64,000 bases of DNA, taken from sequence record NC_055709.1, one strand, 5' to 3'. Below the pieces are notes generated by a model that ran no database searches, was not told the origin of the DNA, and saw only the letters and a program-made list of their open reading frames with translations. The position numbers were made by a program, and so were the translations under genes. Positions 527-56,076 of the stretch are shown in pieces; within the stretch, counting starts at the first letter, position 1; every line of letters begins with the position of its first letter. This stretch comes from Escherichia phage phiE142.

Positions 527-895
527 TTAATTAAATTTGTTTAAACGTTCAATACACTGGACATAGTTATTCGCGATTTGTTTCTGGGAAGGCTCTTTAC
601 CAGTTGTTTCAACATAGCGAATGAATGCGATTTCAGTAGCCTGTAAGCAATGTTCTTTAACGCGTTGTTCTTTTGACAATGCTACAGTATCAGAATCACG
701 ATAACGTTGAGCATGGGCATCAGCTTGAATCATTCGATTACCTACAGTAACCGGGTCTTCCACTTCAACTTTAGGTTGGTCATACTGTTTAACATTCGGA
801 TTGTAAATCAATTGGCCAACGTTATTAGGGATAAAGCCATGGGCACCACATCCGGTTAATCCAAATACCATTGCTAAAGCGATTAATTTTTTCAT
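527..895 (-). CDS. lipoprotein (lipobox LTGC), 122 aa
   Basis: MKKLIALAMVFGLTGC signal/lipobox; ATG verified. Confidence 0.55.
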   Translation of the reverse strand: MKKLIALAMVFGLTGCGAHGFIPNNVGQLIYNPNVKQYDQPKVEVEDPVTVGNRMIQADAHAQRYRDSDTVALSKEQRVKEHCLQATEIAFIRYVETTGKEPSQKQIANNYVQCIERLNKFN

Positions 896-967: not shown

Positions 968-1156
968 TTATCGAAAATCAGCTTCAAAAACTTTCTCGTC
1001 ATTAACAAATGCTTTAACTAATGCTTTGTTCACTTCAGCAAGTTGTACCGTAACCCACTCGATTTCTTCACGGTCACCTGATAACATGATATCTTTAGTG
1101 AACATCTCACCGCTTTTAAACCAACCGATAAAAGTAACTTTAGTTAATTTGCTCAT
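968..1156 (-). CDS. hypothetical protein, 62 aa
   Basis: track ORF, ATG verified, 4-nt overlap with upstream gene. Confidence 0.4.
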   Translation of the reverse strand: MSKLTKVTFIGWFKSGEMFTKDIMLSGDREEIEWVTVQLAEVNKALVKAFVNDEKVFEADFR

Positions 1157-1470
1157 ATTTCCTCACAGAACGCCCATTCAGCATGATAAACTGTAGCACC
1201 TTTAGTATTATTCATTTGAACTACGTCTACCGGAGAAATTACTCGATAGAGACGTGGTTCACCTCCATAAGAGCGTGCTGCTCGTCCTGCATAAATCTTT
1301 GCTAAACCGATATCTTCAGTAAAGAATACACGATTCAAGTTTTTCTTACGTCCGGTTTCAGACAGAACTCCTGTTTCTTCAGGAGGACAAAGCATGTTTT
1401 CGATGTTAGCTGAACTACTTGAACCGTGATAAAAAATCTTAAATTCTGCTTTACAATCGATGGTTTTCAT
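1153..1470 (-). CDS. hypothetical protein, 105 aa, with Y-H-G-S motif (possible minimal ADP-ribosyltransferase-like fold)
   Basis: ATG verified; PeSL promoter directly upstream; FYHGSSS motif by eye only. Confidence 0.45.
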   Translation of the reverse strand: MKTIDCKAEFKIFYHGSSSSANIENMLCPPEETGVLSETGRKKNLNRVFFTEDIGLAKIYAGRAARSYGGEPRLYRVISPVDVVQMNNTKGATVYHAEWAFCEEI

Positions 1471-1525: not shown

Positions 1526-1900
1526 TTAAAAACGTAATTTAGATATATCTGCGTTGATTTCGTTTTGGTTTGCGTCGTATGCAATTAAACGAACCGCTTT
1601 AGATGGGTCATTCAATGCATAGAAATGATGGAACATTGCTCGAACGATATCACCATTTACGAGTTCTACCTGGATAGGAGAACCTTTTTCGAGTTGGAAA
1701 TGTTCATAAGCTTTAATGGTTCGCAGATAATCAAGTTTTTGATTTCCGGCTCCAACGATTTGTACGATACGTTTGCCCATGTTTTCCATACGAGATACAA
1801 TAGTTTTAGGAGCAAGAATAACGTAGGTTGCCAGCGGAGAAACTACTTCAACAGTTGTGTTTTCGGTGATTGCAGTAAAAATTGCTTGAGACATATTCAT
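1526..1900 (-). CDS. hypothetical protein, 124 aa
   Basis: ATG verified with AAGAGGA SD; early promoter upstream. Confidence 0.5.
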   Translation of the reverse strand: MNMSQAIFTAITENTTVEVVSPLATYVILAPKTIVSRMENMGKRIVQIVGAGNQKLDYLRTIKAYEHFQLEKGSPIQVELVNGDIVRAMFHHFYALNDPSKAVRLIAYDANQNEINADISKLRF

Positions 1901-38432: not shown

Positions 38433-38592
38433 ACATTTGCAATTCGGTGTGGGCTTCGGCCATCTTTTTCATAGCTCTGTTAATGTCGATGTCTCCATCT
38501 TCGCAACCATGAGCATTTTCCCAATCAGATACCGCATTAGCGTACTCTTCAATCAAAAACATCAACTTAGAAATCTTTTCTTTACGTGTCAT
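38413..38592 (-). CDS. hypothetical protein, 59 aa
   Basis: internal ATG with AGAGGAGA SD; track N-extension overlaps promoter cassette. Confidence 0.3.
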   Translation of the reverse strand: MTRKEKISKLMFLIEEYANAVSDWENAHGCEDGDIDINRAMKKMAEAHTELQMYVNEIM

Positions 38593-38599
38593 AGCGTTC

Positions 38600-38648
38600 T
38601 CCTCTAGTAAGTAAGGTTTACTATAACACAACCTGAGGAGAAGTAAAC
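38600..38648 (-). promoter_or_regulatory. PeSL cassette (GTTTAC, CTCCTC/GAGGAG arms)
   Basis: upstream of 38413-38592. Confidence 0.45.
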
Positions 38649-38658
38649 TGATAGATGC

Positions 38659-38687
38659 CAAAAAGCCCCAACCATAAGGAAGGGGCT
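38659..38687 (-). terminator. rho-independent terminator after rI (AGCCCC...GGGGCT hairpin + U-run)
   Basis: GC stem followed by TTTTT on minus strand. Confidence 0.55.
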
Positions 38688-38693
38688 AGTAAA

Positions 38694-38996
38694 TTAGATA
38701 GATGTAGGCTCTAATTTTATTTTCATGAACTCGGCAAATTGTCTGGCAGTTTTTATGCCTTGTTCATGACATTCAAATGCATCATCACAGAGGCTATTTT
38801 TGTAATGCTTTGCCATATACTTATAGAATTTTTCAGAATTCTCAACATTTTGAATTTCGAACAAAGTATATACGTTTTTAATCCCTGATTCCATAAAGTT
38901 ATCAAAGTATGGGTCAACATATGCAGTACCAACGATAGGAGTTGTTGCTGCAAAAAACCCTAGCATCGCCATGACAGCTATCGCTCTTAAGGCCAT
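38694..38996 (-). CDS. rI: rI lysis-inhibition regulator (periplasmic)
   Basis: MALRAIAVMAMLGFF...VDPYFDNFMESGIKNVYTLFE resembles T4 rI; signal peptide. Confidence 0.8.
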   Translation of the reverse strand: MALRAIAVMAMLGFFAATTPIVGTAYVDPYFDNFMESGIKNVYTLFEIQNVENSEKFYKYMAKHYKNSLCDDAFECHEQGIKTARQFAEFMKIKLEPTSI

Positions 38997-39008
38997 ATAG
39001 GCCTCCTG

Positions 39009-39221
39009 TTAATTTTGGCCAGTATTTATTTTTCGCCTTTGGACGGCCTTAACATCTGTGAGGTATTTTTCCAGCTTGCGCTTGCGTGTATAATCAGCTT
39101 TAGAACCAGTTTGACGGATATCCTCGTTTAAATGAGAAATAGAATGTCCTAATTCTCTTCGGATTTCATCCAATTGGGTTACAGTAAGATTACGAAGTTG
39201 TCTTTCGTTTAATTGCTGCAT
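39009..39221 (-). CDS. hypothetical protein, 70 aa
   Basis: track ORF, ATG verified. Confidence 0.4.
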
Positions 39222-39248
39222 ATATACCTCTTGGTTAGATATTAGTAT

Positions 39249-39830
39249 TTATAACAACCCTGTCAAATCATTCCAATGCTTCCGGCATAATGACACGTAT
39301 CTATCGGTATCACCAATTTCAATTTGACTGCCATCTGTAATTGGAAGTCCGTCTTCCGTGACTCTAGCTACCATTGTGGCCTTTTTACCACAATGACAGA
39401 CACCTTTAAGTTCAACAAGCTTATCGGCAATAGCCATTAATGCTTGAGAACCTTCAAATAGATTACCTTTAAAATCTGTTCGTAGTCCGTATGCCATTAC
39501 CGGCACATTGTATACGTCAACAATACGACTAAGTTGATACACCTTTTCAGTAGTTAAGAACTGAGCTTCGTCAACAAATACACAGTGAATATCCTTTTGT
39601 GCTGCAGCCCATTTATAAAATTCAAAGATATCCATGTCTTTTGTAATTATATTGGCATCCTGACGAATACCAATACGAGAGACTATTTCACCTTTTGAAT
39701 CGCGAGTATCAATAGCCGGTTTAAGAACTAATACACCCATGCCACGTTCTTTATAGTTATGTGCGGCAGTAAGTAATGAAGCAGACTTACCAGCGTTCAT
39801 AGCGGCATAGGTAAAAATTAAACTAGCCAT
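39249..39830 (-). CDS. tk: thymidine kinase
   Basis: P-loop MNAGKSASL, C-terminal Zn-binding Cys pairs; 193 aa. Confidence 0.9.
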   Translation of the reverse strand: MASLIFTYAAMNAGKSASLLTAAHNYKERGMGVLVLKPAIDTRDSKGEIVSRIGIRQDANIITKDMDIFEFYKWAAAQKDIHCVFVDEAQFLTTEKVYQLSRIVDVYNVPVMAYGLRTDFKGNLFEGSQALMAIADKLVELKGVCHCGKKATMVARVTEDGLPITDGSQIEIGDTDRYVSLCRKHWNDLTGLL

Positions 39831-39839
39831 AAGAGTCCC

Positions 39840-40022
39840 TTATAGTGAATTCACGTAGTCAATGAGTTCTTGTTCTTTCCTGTCAAATGATTCCATCAAT
39901 GCTTGATATTCTTCGTCTGTTAAAGGAGCATATTCATCGTACGCATTGGTGGCTGCTTGCTCATCCAATAGGTCATGGATAAGTTCGAACAGTTTAGTTT
40001 TCTCTTCTTTAGTCAATTTCAT
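39840..40022 (-). CDS. hypothetical acidic protein, 60 aa
   Basis: track ORF, ATG verified. Confidence 0.35.
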   Translation of the reverse strand: MKLTKEEKTKLFELIHDLLDEQAATNAYDEYAPLTDEEYQALMESFDRKEQELIDYVNSL

Positions 40023-40225
40023 TTAGGTTCACCTTCTTTAACGAAATCTGGGTAAGGGTAAAATCCTGAGTAAAACCCTTCACCTTTATGATTGCTACAA
40101 CCTTTGTTCGAACAGTAACACCAATAATCAAAATCACAAGCCATTTCGTCATTGCATAAAGCAAAAACTACAGGCCATTCGCATTTTTCGCATTTAGCAC
40201 CTGTAAGAATTTTTGTTTGGCTCAT
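40019..40225 (-). CDS. hypothetical Cys-rich small protein
   Basis: trimmed to ATG at 40225. Confidence 0.35.
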   Translation of the reverse strand: MSQTKILTGAKCEKCEWPVVFALCNDEMACDFDYWCYCSNKGCSNHKGEGFYSGFYPYPDFVKEGEPK

Positions 40226-40434
40226 AACCATTTGACCTGCATGCAATATTCTTCGACATGCTTTTTACGACCTTTCTTATCAATAAAGGTATATTCCATA
40301 AAGCGTCCATGATAACGACGTTCAACATCGTGAGGGGTGTTAATAGGACACTTAGTCTGACGAATTTCTTCCCATTCACGAATAATAACTGCTTTATTCT
40401 TTGGGTCATACGGGTGAGGATAATGCACATTCAT
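40222..40434 (-). CDS. hypothetical protein
   Basis: trimmed to ATG at 40434; competing overlapping frame 40194-40430 rejected. Confidence 0.35.
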   Translation of the reverse strand: MNVHYPHPYDPKNKAVIIREWEEIRQTKCPINTPHDVERRYHGRFMEYTFIDKKGRKKHVEEYCMQVKWL

Positions 40435-40898
40435 AACAATGGTTCCCAATCAACAATCACAATTTCTAGTTTAGTGGAATATGTATCAAGAATTTCTTCA
40501 ATGATATCCCAGTTTCCACCACCTATACCTGCTCCAATTCTTGGCATGTAAATCACAGGCTTTGTTATCTTATTTTTTCCGAATTCATTTAATTCTATTA
40601 TACAATTCATTAAAGCAGAGTACTCAAAATTAGGTCCCGGCTCAAACTGAGTATAAAGATTAAAGCAATAAGCTTTATGAGTCTTAAAATATTTTTCATA
40701 AACCGAATAAGTCCCAAGTTTAGACTCGTCTCCGAATTCAGTTTGAAGTTTATCGGCTTCCAGAATTTTTGGATAAGCCTTTGCCAATTGACCTGCTACA
40801 CCGGCGCCCATTGTATGAAAACAATTGCACCCATGAGCAATATTATTACCTTTAGAAAACAGGGCGACAATATCGCCCTTGATATAGTTTTTAATCAC
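40431..40898 (-). CDS. macrodomain protein (ADP-ribose binding/hydrolase fold)
   Basis: HGCNCFHTMGAGVAGQ and PRIGAGIGGGNW motifs; GTG start. Confidence 0.65.
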   Translation of the reverse strand: MIKNYIKGDIVALFSKGNNIAHGCNCFHTMGAGVAGQLAKAYPKILEADKLQTEFGDESKLGTYSVYEKYFKTHKAYCFNLYTQFEPGPNFEYSALMNCIIELNEFGKNKITKPVIYMPRIGAGIGGGNWDIIEEILDTYSTKLEIVIVDWEPLL

Positions 40899-41238
40899 TT
40901 GCTACAAGTCCTCTAGTATAAGAGTCAACTAGACGGTCCACCATAGAATTGCATGCTGCCTTATCTTTAGGTTCCGCCACCGAGCATTCTAATATTTGCC
41001 ATTTTTTATGATATCGTTTAATTAAGGTAGACGCCTTGAACCTACTAGACGCCCCATCTTTTTCTCCGTCTTTATACGCATATAACAATTTTTGTGAAAA
41101 ATCTACTTTACACTCTTGACTTTTACCACAGTAATCAGACGCCGTTCTGTTTGTATACTCCGTTACATCAGTATATGTAGTATTAGCAAGAGCGTTAAAT
41201 GAAACCAAGCTAACTATTAAAGCCAACATTTTGGTCAT
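40891..41238 (-). CDS. secreted Cys-containing protein, 115 aa
   Basis: N-terminal signal peptide; ATG verified. Confidence 0.45.
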   Translation of the reverse strand: MTKMLALIVSLVSFNALANTTYTDVTEYTNRTASDYCGKSQECKVDFSQKLLYAYKDGEKDGASSRFKASTLIKRYHKKWQILECSVAEPKDKAACNSMVDRLVDSYTRGLVASD

Positions 41239-41777
41239 TCTTTTATTTCCAGTAGTTTATTTGATTTAAGGTAATTAGCCTTTTCTAGGACTTCAGAAGC
41301 ATATTTACTTCCAGCACTTGTCTTCCATCCCGCATTATATGAGGATATAGCTTTTCTTATATCCCCGTTATGTATATTTAACCAATAAGAAAATTCGATA
41401 TAAGCCCATCTGGCTGAATTAGACCGCTTAGATAGCATTTTCTTAATTTGGGCATCAGTCATATTATAACCAAGCTGGTTAATTCTTGCCCTCATTGTTG
41501 GTAGATAGTTTTGGAACATTCCATACGCATGGTGACCTTTCTTATCTTTAAGATTAATACCGGCAGATGATTCTTGCCATAGTATTGCGGCCATTATGTA
41601 TCCAAGTCCTTTCTTATGCATATTTTCATGCGTTTTAAATTTTCCGTCCTTAGAAAACTGTTCCCCAAACTGATAAGCATAATTTAAGTTATCGAGTTGG
41701 ACATTACTAAAAGTATGCTCGGAGCTATGTGCTGATAATGAAAGAGCAAATAGACCAGCGAGTAGTGCTTTTCTCAT
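41235..41777 (-). CDS. periplasmic lytic-transglycosylase-like protein
   Basis: signal peptide; LWQESSAG catalytic-Glu-like motif. Confidence 0.5.
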   Translation of the reverse strand: MRKALLAGLFALSLSAHSSEHTFSNVQLDNLNYAYQFGEQFSKDGKFKTHENMHKKGLGYIMAAILWQESSAGINLKDKKGHHAYGMFQNYLPTMRARINQLGYNMTDAQIKKMLSKRSNSARWAYIEFSYWLNIHNGDIRKAISSYNAGWKTSAGSKYASEVLEKANYLKSNKLLEIKE

Positions 41778-41785
41778 GTTTACCT

Positions 41786-42244
41786 CTAGATTTTAATCAC
41801 TGCTTTAGAAGCTTTTCCTGGTAGTCGTTTACTGTTAATAATAGCCATTCTACATTGAAGAGTCTTCATTTTGAATGCCGGATTTTCACGACAAACTGTA
41901 AGGCCTAACCAAAGATTTCCATCAGTTATTTCTAAACGGCCTGGGCGGTATTCGACACCTTCGACAAAATCTTCGTCAACATCTGGACGTGCAGGCATTG
42001 ATAAAAATTCTGCAACTTCTTTAACGTGATTTTTTACTTTACGAAATAATTCAAAAACGTAATTCTCATCTATTTCTCTCTGGATGGCACGATCTAAGAG
42101 ATGTTGAGAATACTTGATATGAAAGCCTGGTAGTCCAAGAGACTCTGCAGCATCTTTTATACCGGCATTGATTTGACGAAACTCCGTTTCAAAGATTCGA
42201 CGGAGTTTATTGCGACGGATAAAAACTTCCGAATTGATAGTCAT
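41786..42244 (-). CDS. regB: RegB endoribonuclease
   Basis: MTINSEVFIRRNKLRR...HLLDRAIQREIDE...RLEITDGNLWLG as in T4 RegB. Confidence 0.9.
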   Translation of the reverse strand: MTINSEVFIRRNKLRRIFETEFRQINAGIKDAAESLGLPGFHIKYSQHLLDRAIQREIDENYVFELFRKVKNHVKEVAEFLSMPARPDVDEDFVEGVEYRPGRLEITDGNLWLGLTVCRENPAFKMKTLQCRMAIINSKRLPGKASKAVIKI

Positions 42245-42251
42245 TTTTATT

Positions 42252-42301
42252 TCTCCTCTAGTTGACAGGTCTATAGTAACACAACTAGAGGAGAAGTAAA
42301 C
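42252..42301 (-). promoter_or_regulatory. PeSL cassette upstream of regB (13-bp perfect inverted repeat CTCCTCTAGTTG/CAACTAGAGGAG)
   Basis: GTTTAC -35 plus TGTTACTAT -10 in loop. Confidence 0.6.
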
Positions 42302-42305
42302 TACT

Positions 42306-42521
42306 TTATTGATAAAATGGAGTTAAAGCCCAAGATTCTTTAGATACTATATTAGCGAAATGCCTCATCTCTTCGATTTGGCGACGACGCTGGTCAGCAT
42401 AATCTTCTTCGCCTTCTTCCTTACAATCTTCAAGGTCTTCTTCAAGATACTTTAAGTATTCACTACAAATTTTGTTAACCTTTTCTTGGAAGTCCAACAA
42501 CCCAGTAATAGTAGAAGCCAT
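42306..42521 (-). CDS. hypothetical acidic protein, 71 aa
   Basis: track ORF, ATG verified. Confidence 0.35.
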   Translation of the reverse strand: MASTITGLLDFQEKVNKICSEYLKYLEEDLEDCKEEGEEDYADQRRRQIEEMRHFANIVSKESWALTPFYQ

Positions 42522-42787
42522 TAGTATTTTTCCTCAGGACGAAATACTGCACGACAGGCCCACATGCTGGCTTCTTTTAGATGTTGCTTAGCGTACTTAA
42601 GAGCCTGCACTGCATCCATATCTTCTTTGGTTTGATGCTCTGTTTCATTTTCTTTCAAGATATAGGCTTCTTCAATCAGAGCATCAAACATCAATCCAAG
42701 ACGGACTTCTGCATCTTTAATAGCGTTCACTTTACCTATTTTATCGTCGGTATGTGGCTTGTAGCCTTTAATATCTTCAATCGACAT
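42521..42787 (-). CDS. hypothetical protein
   Basis: internal ATG with GAGGA SD; longer track ORF overlaps neighbour. Confidence 0.3.
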   Translation of the reverse strand: MSIEDIKGYKPHTDDKIGKVNAIKDAEVRLGLMFDALIEEAYILKENETEHQTKEDMDAVQALKYAKQHLKEASMWACRAVFRPEEKY

Positions 42788-43001
42788 AAGGAATTTCCTC
42801 ATCGGTGGCAAGGTCATATTCGACCAATTGGATAGGCTCATTAATACCATATCCACGTACAATGATATCAGTTGTCGGATAGTTTCCAGTAATATCACCC
42901 ATTCTAAATGCTTCAGTGAATGATTGCTCGCCTGAGCAACTAAACCAGGCGGCAAAACATTTTAAAACATCTTCAGACCCTTCTATAATCAATTTAGCCA
43001 T
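42777..43001 (-). CDS. hypothetical protein, 74 aa
   Basis: track ORF, ATG verified. Confidence 0.35.
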   Translation of the reverse strand: MAKLIIEGSEDVLKCFAAWFSCSGEQSFTEAFRMGDITGNYPTTDIIVRGYGINEPIQLVEYDLATDEEIPYVD

Positions 43002-43363
43002 TATAGACTCTCAGTAAAGGTACGAGCGATAACGTCGCGCTGCTGTTCCGGAGTCAGAGAGTTAAAGCGAACTGCATAACCGGATACACGGATGGTCAGC
43101 TGCGGATATTTTTCCGGATGCTTAACTGCATCTTCCAGAGTTTCACGACGCAGAACGTTAACGTTCAGGTGTTGACCACCTTCAATTTTAACTTTAGGTT
43201 GATGTTCAATTTCAATTTCACGGGCATTCAAACCGTAGAAAATTTCCGGGTCTACAATAGCGTCTTCTTTAAAAGTCTTAGAGACAATAATCCGGGCTTG
43301 AGTACCGTCTTCAAAATAAATAGTGCCTTTGTGTGTGCCTTCAAGAATTTGATATGCTTTCAT
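43001..43363 (-). CDS. GrcA/YfiD-like autonomous glycyl radical cofactor
   Basis: C-terminal [11 protein letters not shown]...[11 protein letters not shown] glycyl-radical motif; 120 aa. Confidence 0.75.
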
Positions 43364-43369
43364 ATAACC

Positions 43370-43678
43370 TCAATTAGAAAATAAATTTATCCAAGTTTTT
43401 TCTTTAATCAAAAATGGGACGGAATTAAACGCCATTAAACTTTGAGTGATTAATCCCTTAAATGGCCCATCAATAAATTCCATTTTGAAATGTGGAATAC
43501 TAGTCATCAACCGTGCATTAGGAGCAGTACAAAGAACCTGCTGCCCTGCGAACGGACCTTTAGTCAAACGATATCGTTTAGGTTTAAAATGGTAAATCTC
43601 GTAATTTTCTACAAGAGCCCTTTTATTGCATACTGGGCTGTTATAACAATACTCAAAAACTTCAATAGTGGTCATCAT
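43370..43678 (-). CDS. hypothetical Cys-rich protein
   Basis: trimmed to ATG at 43678 (ATGA overlap with upstream gene). Confidence 0.35.
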   Translation of the reverse strand: MMTTIEVFEYCYNSPVCNKRALVENYEIYHFKPKRYRLTKGPFAGQQVLCTAPNARLMTSIPHFKMEFIDGPFKGLITQSLMAFNSVPFLIKEKTWINLFSN

Positions 43679-55919: not shown

Positions 55920-55996
<77 letters not shown>

Positions 55997-56002
55997 AATA
56001 TA

Positions 56003-56076
56003 TGACCCAGACCAGATTCGAACTGGTAACCTTTCCCTTATGAGGGGACTGCTGCTAACCGTTGAGCTACAGGGCC
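56003..56076 (-). tRNA. probable tRNA with CAU anticodon (Met or Ile2-type)
   Basis: T-arm ACCAG-TTCGAAT-CTGGT, anticodon loop CTCATAA; acceptor has one mismatch and D-arm is atypical. Confidence 0.5.

Follow-up and report, generated by a model that had tools for sequence, protein, structure and literature searches.

What does a stand-alone macrodomain gene do in an RB69-like T-even phage, and do the apparently secreted proteins encoded beside it share its task? This question is raised by a stretch of 64,000 nucleotides from Escherichia phage phiE142 (sequence record NC_055709.1; this whole stretch is called the window hereafter), in which a first-pass annotation made from the sequence alone had pointed out a macrodomain protein at 40431-40898 and had proposed that it reverses host defense based on ADP-ribosylation of the DarT type. 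As judged from gene order and sequence comparison, the open reading frame (ORF) is the syntenic ortholog of T4 tk.4 (adfM), and it is likely that its product protects the phage from DarTG2 by hydrolyzing thymidine-linked ADP-ribose. Two further points came out of the analysis: the predicted active site has Gln in place of the catalytic Lys of DarG, and the window also encodes a predicted minimal ADP-ribosyltransferase (ART), which we call the mini-ART.

A Tk.4/AdfM ortholog between tk and regB

The window is AT-rich, with a GC content of ~37%, and its source is an RB69-like T-even phage; for positions 39000-43000, identity was 99.5% with Escherichia phages Av-05 and phiC120 and ~96-97% with many RB69-like T-even phages. 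The genes of the tk-regB region, a label in the first-pass annotation that was right, all lie on the minus strand in the order regB, ORFs of 180, 115, and 155 amino acids (aa), three small ORFs, and tk. The order tk-tk.1-tk.2-tk.3-tk.4-vs-vs.1-regB is the same in the window and in the T4 reference genome.

40431-40898, minus strand: tk.4/adfM ortholog, 155 aa, predicted stand-alone ALC1-like macrodomain of the Gln type (N25, Q84, loop PRIGAGIGGGNW)
39249-39830, minus strand: tk, thymidine kinase (PF00265, E 7.3e-57), the downstream synteny anchor
40019-40246, minus strand: tk.2-like small ORF (recently created Pfam family Phage_zn_bind, E 5e-29)
40222-40449, minus strand: tk.3-like small ORF (recently created Pfam family DUF7202, E 1.6e-37)
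40891-41238, minus strand: vs ortholog, 115 aa, "valyl-tRNA synthetase modifier" (PHROG 1256, E 4.3e-35; 66% identity to T4 Vs)
41235-41777, minus strand: vs.1 ortholog, 180 aa, with a predicted remote SLT domain (83% identity to T4 Vs.1)
41786-42244, minus strand: regB, endoribonuclease (PF10715, E 1e-68), the upstream synteny anchor

In the 155-aa translation, NIAHGCNCFHTMGAGVAGQ spans aa 19-37 and PRIGAGIGGGNW spans aa 119-130, so that both macrodomain motifs claimed by the first-pass annotation are present. The translation scored 28.6 bits with Pfam Macro (PF01661), for which the gathering score is 22 (E 1.5e-6, covering profile positions 2-117 of 118), and matched PHROG 335 with an E of 4.7e-67. 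Structure prediction, which had been suggested as a check, bore out the assignment: an AlphaFold2 model built on 79 homologs had a predicted local distance difference test (pLDDT) score of 96.2, and the predicted fold is a three-layer alpha/beta/alpha macro fold with two glycine-rich ADP-ribose-binding loops. The Tk.4 family profile searched against the PDB matched Bt_1257 (1.2e-17), TARG1 (1.1e-16), DarG (3.9e-15), and SCO6735 (1.5e-14), and the nearest structural and profile neighbors all belonged to the ALC1-like class (TARG1, DarG, SCO6735, ALC1, and Poa1p); DarG models were matched weakly (NCBIfam, 1.8e-7; PADLOC, 1.4e-8). Identity to T4 Tk.4 (NP_049723) was 85% over 155/155 aa without gaps. 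Because the synonymous sites are near saturation (dS, the synonymous divergence from T4 tk.4, is 1.2) while the ratio of nonsynonymous to synonymous divergence (dN/dS) is 0.074, tk.4 is under strong purifying selection. Homologs were detected by tblastn in 2797 phage records covering many hosts. Across 79 family members, C26, G33, A35, D49, G62, N80, Y82, Q84, P119, I121, G122, and G124 are invariant, N25 is shared by at least 90%, and the window protein retains every invariant residue. A rule-of-thumb check (not SignalP) detected no basic n-region, h-region, or -3/-1 site in the macrodomain, which is therefore predicted to be cytoplasmic.

Both the macrodomain and the function of the T4 ortholog were already known. 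When a T4 transposon library was grown on a DarTG2-expressing host, tk.4 was the sole significant gene, and a clean tk.4 knockout sensitized T4 to DarTG2; in this report of November 2025, the gene was renamed adfM (anti-DarT factor Macrodomain) and a structural similarity of Tk.4 to Mycobacterium tuberculosis DarG was noted (bioRxiv 10.1101/2025.11.20.689424). Through orthology, these data support the reversal of DarT-like DNA ADP-ribosylation that the first-pass annotation had proposed, although they are genetic and not biochemical. A T4 strain without adfA and adfN had stayed DarTG2-resistant (PMC11825919), and a further factor had therefore been predicted, a place now filled by tk.4. Hence the window gene itself adds little: this early gene is widespread among T-even phages, and its role against DarTG2 had been described for T4 in 2025; the points of remaining value are the Gln-for-Lys active site, a collision in the AdfM naming, and the mini-ART.

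Candidate mechanism and its alternatives

Residue equivalences were obtained by aligning the PDB sequences of DarG, TARG1, Bt_1257, and SCO6735 to the family profile (a hidden Markov model) and with MAFFT. Asn25 aligned with DarG Asn22 and SCO6735 Asn27, while Gln84 aligned with SCO6735 Gln85, DarG Lys80, and TARG1 Lys84 and is the counterpart of the PhiKZ-type Lys78. The first-pass annotation had held that loss of the conserved catalytic residues would speak against its proposal, and the alignment gave a divided answer: the lysine of DarG and TARG1 is gone, but Gln84 and Asn25 are kept as in the active SCO6735 (PMC9411070). SCO6735 is faster than DarG or TARG1 in cleaving thymidine-linked ADP-ribose on DNA and rescues E. 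coli from DarT, and its activity is abolished by Q85A and Q85E and nearly abolished by N27S; the proposed mechanism is water-mediated, with Gln85, held by Asn27, positioning the distal ribose (PMC9411070). Because Gln is the normal residue in this active subclass, the loss of lysine does not refute activity. Besides the Asn/Gln pair, the window protein shares with SCO6735 a second loop, PRIGAGIGGGNW, that is nearly identical to the SCO6735 loop PRIGCGLAGGTW. A "dead macrodomain", i.e., a non-catalytic reader, was considered and rejected as the default reading, since Gln84 is invariant and the equivalent Gln has a proven catalytic-site role in SCO6735.

In the mechanism that we propose, the macrodomain would be expressed early within the tightly packed regB-vs.1-vs-tk.4-tk.3-tk gene string and would remain in the cytoplasm. 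Host DarT2 would ADP-ribosylate thymidines of single-stranded phage DNA, and the macrodomain would bind the ADP-ribose via its two glycine-rich loops, MGAGVAG and PRIGAGIGGG, and hydrolyze the thymine-ribose bond, by which replicable DNA would be restored and DarTG2 neutralized. The short-loop Gln type of Tk.4 probably works like SCO6735, and catalysis would then be independent of lysine, with Gln84, held by Asn25, positioning the distal ribose so that an activated water could attack it. The exported Vs and Vs.1 would play no part in this protection. The analysis and the cited papers show that the protein has a macrodomain fold, is orthologous to Tk.4, and has the equivalent residues, that T4 without the gene is sensitized, and that SCO6735 is active; we infer that the window protein itself protects its phage from DarTG2 and that hydrolysis of thymidine-linked ADP-ribose is the means.

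Several points weigh against this mechanism. Hydrolysis by T4 Tk.4 was called likely by its discoverers from structural similarity only, and the phenotype was scored in a special setting (30 °C) and demonstrated for T4, not for an RB69-like phage, in a preprint (bioRxiv 10.1101/2025.11.20.689424). In addition to the absence of the DarG/TARG1 catalytic lysine, TARG1 Asp125 corresponds to Gly126 in the window protein. The likeness to SCO6735 is also incomplete, because the window protein is without the 5-6-residue longer mobile loop that carries Lys89 in SCO6735 and has Ala32 where SCO6735 has Lys34, both lysines being implicated in DNA handling, and Gly23 where SCO6735 has Val25. The longer mobile loop (five residues relative to DarG and TARG1), Lys89, and Val/Ile25 are subclass-specific features of SCO6735 (PMC9411070). 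Finally, SCO6735 Q85A, although catalytically dead, is a stronger inhibitor of DarT in vitro than DarG K80A or TARG1 K84A (PMC9411070).

Because this dead enzyme still inhibits DarT by binding, an alternative stays alive in which Tk.4 protects mainly by binding, either by sequestering ADP-ribosylated DNA or by directly inhibiting the DarT2 toxin, without catalysis. It would agree with the toxin binding of AdfA and AdfB, which are other phage anti-DarT factors, and with the facts that hydrolysis by Tk.4 was deduced from structure and that the catalytic lysine of DarG is missing. However, the equivalents of SCO6735 Asn27 and Gln85 are 90-100% conserved over 79 diverse Tk.4 homologs, as expected for an enzyme, and a binder of diverse DarT variants should evolve fast, whereas tk.4 has a dN/dS of only 0.074 and occurs in 2797 phage records with many hosts. 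Protection by binding is thus improbable, although it is the alternative that survives best.

Hydrolysis by Tk.4 could also serve a broader purpose, with ADP-ribosylated proteins or RNA as the main substrates and the DarTG2 phenotype as one facet of a general eraser role; possible writers of such marks are phage enzymes of the Alt/ModA/ModB type, the 105-aa mini-ART of RB69-like phages, or other host ART defenses. SCO6735 and TARG1 act on protein-linked as well as DNA-linked ADP-ribose (PMC9411070), and a 2026 paper citing these enzymes reports reversible ADP-ribosylation of RNA uracil. The presence of a predicted mini-ART in the window points in the same direction, but T4 has tk.4 and no mini-ART at the corresponding locus between gene 41 and dmd, so that the two genes are not an obligate pair, and no tk.4 phenotype beyond DarTG2 has been reported. 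Moreover, the T4 Alt and Mod enzymes modify arginine, and we know of no macrodomain that reverses this modification. We regard proteins or RNA as the main substrates as rather unlikely.

The chance is smaller still that the protein is a housekeeping enzyme for free metabolites, acting as an ADP-ribose-1''-phosphate phosphatase or an O-acetyl-ADP-ribose deacetylase. Database names such as "phosphatase", "A1pp", and "Poa1p-like" suggest such a role, but they are homology transfers, and the sole tk.4 phenotype found is specific to DarTG2. To our knowledge, the T4 RNA repair system (Pnkp/Rnl1) makes no 2'-phosphate and hence no Appr>p. Yeast Poa1p, the ADP-ribose-1''-phosphate phosphatase (PDB 6lfq-6lfu), has Ser at the Gln84 position and, at 180 aa, extra insertions; its link to the window protein consists of fold and sequence similarity only, and its metabolic role is without supporting evidence in T-even phages. 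Degradation of ADP-ribose-derived immune signals such as the gcADPR of Thoeris, which the first-pass annotation had also offered, is very improbable, because we found no report of an ALC1-like macrodomain that cleaves cyclic ADP-ribose isomers, tk.4 came out of the T4 screen with DarTG2 only, and the nearest characterized relatives act on 1''-linked conjugates.

Secreted neighbors, expression signals, and the mini-ART

The two signal-peptide proteins described next to the macrodomain are present as Vs and Vs.1. Their N-termini, MTKMLALIVSLVSFNALA followed by N in Vs and MRKALLAGLFALSLSAHS followed by S in Vs.1, each comprise a basic n-region, a hydrophobic h-region (best 10-residue Kyte-Doolittle mean 2.7 and 2.4, respectively), and a small-residue -3/-1 site; the T4 proteins have kept both the n/h regions and the site. 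The calls were again made by rule of thumb and not by SignalP. Both proteins are likely periplasmic, and no literature on export of T4 Vs or Vs.1 was found. Vs has its predicted site between ALA and N and four cysteines (Cys 37/43/85/96) conserved with T4. A periplasmic disulfide-bonded protein would fit the signal-like N-terminus and the four cysteines, and these features are odd for a cytoplasmic role in binding valyl-tRNA synthetase. Homologs of Vs were found in 794 phage records, and vs is required for T4 plaque formation on M9-glucose (bioRxiv 10.1101/2025.11.20.689424).

The SLT-like "ESS" motif noticed in one of the neighbors is WQESSAG at aa 67-73 of Vs.1, in which E69 and S71 are invariant in 48 family members. 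It is joined by two further motifs to give the series E69-S70-S71, G86-M-F-Q89, and Y147-N148-A-G150, with E69, S71, G86, Q89, Y147, N148, and G150 invariant. The motifs E-S, G-x-x-Q, and Y-N-x-G define family-1 lytic transglycosylases. The score of the window Vs.1 with Pfam SLT was 18.8 bits (E 0.0013), below the cut-off of 21.3, and 45/48 family members matched SLT at E <= 0.01, the best at 1.3e-7. On the strength of these motifs and profile matches, Vs.1 is probably a remote SLT homolog, i.e., family-1 lytic transglycosylase-like. Searches of the PDB with the Vs.1 family profile and, by phmmer, with Vs and Vs.1 gave no match, and neither protein matched PADLOC or NCBIfam. In public records, the Vs.1 ortholog is labeled "endoribonuclease RegB" or "predicted endoribonuclease RegB motif" (Shigella phage JK45, locus L002, 3736-4278; CC31, locus L006, 714-1262). 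As the family matches SLT and not RegB, this label looks like annotation spill-over from the adjacent regB.

The first-pass annotation had implied a link between the macrodomain and its secreted neighbors, and this part of it did not hold up. One functional module of tk.4, vs, and vs.1 would agree with the overlapping or abutting genes, with the order kept in T4 and CC31, and with the position of vs.1 ~1 kb from tk.4 in Aeromonas phage PX29. Nevertheless, the predicted compartments differ (periplasm for Vs and Vs.1, cytoplasm for the macrodomain), the macrodomain occurs in 2797 phage records compared with 794 for Vs, and the T4 phenotypes are separate, that of tk.4 appearing with DarTG2 and that of vs with minimal medium. 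In an rV5-like phage, the one macrodomain-carrying phage outside Straboviridae that was examined, the gene lies in another context with no annotated Vs or Vs.1 nearby. Such a module is disfavored and most improbable; the tk.4-vs-vs.1 linkage appears to be synteny within the lineage, and nothing points to a joint function. A contig of a metagenome-assembled "Nitrospirae" genome, in which an SLT gene lies two genes after a Tk.4-like macrodomain gene, was considered as a second case of linkage and dismissed as coincidence: BLASTP comparison of the SLT protein with Vs and Vs.1 gave E values of 7.7 and 2.0, i.e., no similarity, and the protein matched endolysin and tail PHROGs.

The genes around tk.4 overlap closely, as vs.1 and vs share ATGA, there is an overlap of 8 nucleotides (nt) between the vs stop and the GTG start of the 155-aa ORF, and the stop of the 155-aa ORF overlaps the start of the next ORF. 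The start codon of tk.4 is GTG in the window and ATG at the same position in T4. The following signals and RNA features were recorded.

40909-40913, minus strand: GAGGA, Shine-Dalgarno-like, 10 nt upstream of the tk.4 GTG and within the vs 3' end
40861-40879, minus strand: 8-bp GC-rich hairpin followed by a U-rich tract, tk.4 codons 7-13 (AGGGCGAU-AUU-GUCGCCCU), a terminator-like site in the scan
55923-55996 and 56003-56076, minus strand: two adjacent tRNA genes (Rfam)

Because the GAGGA of tk.4 sits within the 3' end of vs, translational coupling of tk.4 to vs is suggested. The hairpin within tk.4 had a minimum free energy of -13 kcal/mol and a z-score of -3.5, and although dS for the gene is 1.2, the 23 nt surrounding the hairpin do not differ from those of T4. 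It is kept in SP18 and W115, in the latter with one U.G changed to U-A, but CC31 and Klebsiella phage KEN25 have lost it. Its role could be that of a terminator/attenuator or of an mRNA-stability element. In scans of 38500-43500, promoter-like sites numbered 14, with 15.7 expected by chance, and terminator-like sites numbered 6, with 3.0 +/- 1.8 expected, and therefore we claim no operon boundaries. Over the whole window, Rfam matched the two tRNAs only, with no match near the macrodomain gene.

At the other end of the window, the first-pass annotation had remarked on a Y-H-G-S motif reminiscent of ART folds at 1153-1470. This gene and its surroundings are as follows.

1153-1470, minus strand: mini-ART, RB69ORF040c ortholog, 105 aa, with a predicted minimal Arr/Tpt1-like ADP-ribosyltransferase fold, between gene 41 and dmd
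1526-1900, minus strand: 124-aa ORF (PHROG 10668), flanking mini-ART/dmd
527-895, minus strand: 122-aa ORF downstream of dmd (DUF5481), with a lipobox-like LTGC after a hydrophobic N-terminus

The mini-ART showed 99% identity to RB69ORF040c and was found in 608 phage records. Its Y-H-G-S lies at aa 14-17, and in 42 homologs H15, G16, Y60, and R63 are invariant and Y14 and E103 are conserved in at least 90%. Pfam Arr-ms was marginal for the window protein (E 0.077) and significant for a few homologs and for larger proteins with the same domain. The reading of RB69ORF040c as a minimal Arr/Tpt1-like ADP-ribosyltransferase is supported at the fold level, in line with the earlier remark. A profile search of 1.84 billion representatives yielded 245 matches, and large proteins of 511-3924 aa contain the domain as well, either internally or at their C-terminus; some of these pass the Arr-ms cut-off. 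Two of the large proteins carry polyvalent-protein domains, one ART-PolyVal and NUDIX and the other ddrB-ParB and NUDIX, which suggests that the mini-ART may be an effector module delivered early in infection. The family profile had no match in the PDB, PADLOC and NCBIfam gave none either, and we found no functional study of the mini-ART and nothing on an Arr-like ART in T-even phages in the literature. Because T4 has no gene between 41 and dmd, both the mini-ART and the 124-aa ORF are absent from that T4 locus. Uncharacterized, beside dmd, and absent from T4, the mini-ART is a more novel and more promising lead than the tk.4 ortholog.

Comparison with T4, PhiKZ, and cellular macrodomains

The closest known system is T4. 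Its Tk.4 and the window protein are both 155 aa long, tk.3 lies downstream and vs upstream in both genomes, and the 5' hairpin is common to both; the two proteins differ by 23 substitutions, including Lys127 in T4 versus Gly127 in the window protein in the second glycine-rich loop.

The PhiKZ system bears the same name. PhiKZ gp104 was independently named AdfM in Cell Reports in 2026; it strips ADP-ribose from a TNTC oligonucleotide in vitro, and its active site of Asn23 and Lys78 equals Asn22 and Lys80 of Thermus aquaticus DarG (PMC13309987). The PhiKZ AdfM paper contains no mention of "phage T4", "Tk.4", or "HIDEN" (PMC13309987), and the Gln-for-Lys difference of Tk.4 appears neither there nor in the T4 preprint. 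PhiPA3 gp108 (592-1074 of locus L004), an AdfM of the PhiKZ type, retains the lysine in FPTKERW. A tblastn search with the T. aquaticus DarG macrodomain found 291 phage records; the 40 that were sampled were jumbo, N4-like, and other phages, and 0/40 were T4-like. With the NCBIfam DarG equivalog NF048014 (type II toxin-antitoxin DarTG2), the window protein scored 30.8 bits against a cut-off of 250, matching the macro part only of the 338-position model. Because of Gln versus Lys, the DarG sample without T4-like phages, and the low DarG score, the T4-type and PhiKZ-type "AdfM" belong to different subclasses. As far as the alignments tell, one name thus covers two macrodomain lineages, T4 Tk.4 with Gln on the one hand and the DarG-like PhiKZ gp104 and PhiPA3 gp108 with Lys on the other, and the shared name hides this. 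For studies of the AdfM mechanism in Tk.4, mutants of Q84 and N25 are apt, and not a "K80-like" mutant.

The wide spread of the family over ~2800 phage records suggests that large lytic phages are commonly under pressure from thymidine ADP-ribosylation or a related mark. More speculatively, and with little confidence, the T-even AdfM may be a short-loop Gln84 lineage spread over ~2800 phage genomes and not a captured DarG. T-even, rV5-like, and other phages would then carry the Gln type and PhiKZ-like and N4-like phages the Lys type, and the substrate range of the Gln type could be wider than thymidine-DNA, perhaps including, in RB69-like phages, marks set by the RB69ORF040c mini-ART. If this is true, phages recruited two mechanistically different macrodomain subclasses against one toxin, and Tk.4 and the mini-ART in RB69-like phages would be a phage-encoded eraser/writer pair.

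Among cellular, non-phage proteins, SCO6735 (Streptomyces coelicolor, PDB 5e3b) and Bt_1257 (PDB 2fg1/2afc), which are 54% identical to each other, show ~27-30% identity to the window protein. DarG (T. aquaticus, 5m31/5m3e; M. tuberculosis, 5m3i) has Lys80 and a C-terminal DarT-binding domain, whereas the window protein is a macrodomain only, and the annotated 7 kb surrounding tk.4, where the neighbors are tk.3 and vs, showed no darT. Human TARG1/OARD1 (PDB 4j5r, 4j5s) relies on a Lys84/Asp125 dyad in place of which the window protein has Gln84 and Gly126. By these alignments, Tk.4 is a distinct short-loop lineage of the Gln type, neither a DarG nor a strict member of the SCO6735 subclass.

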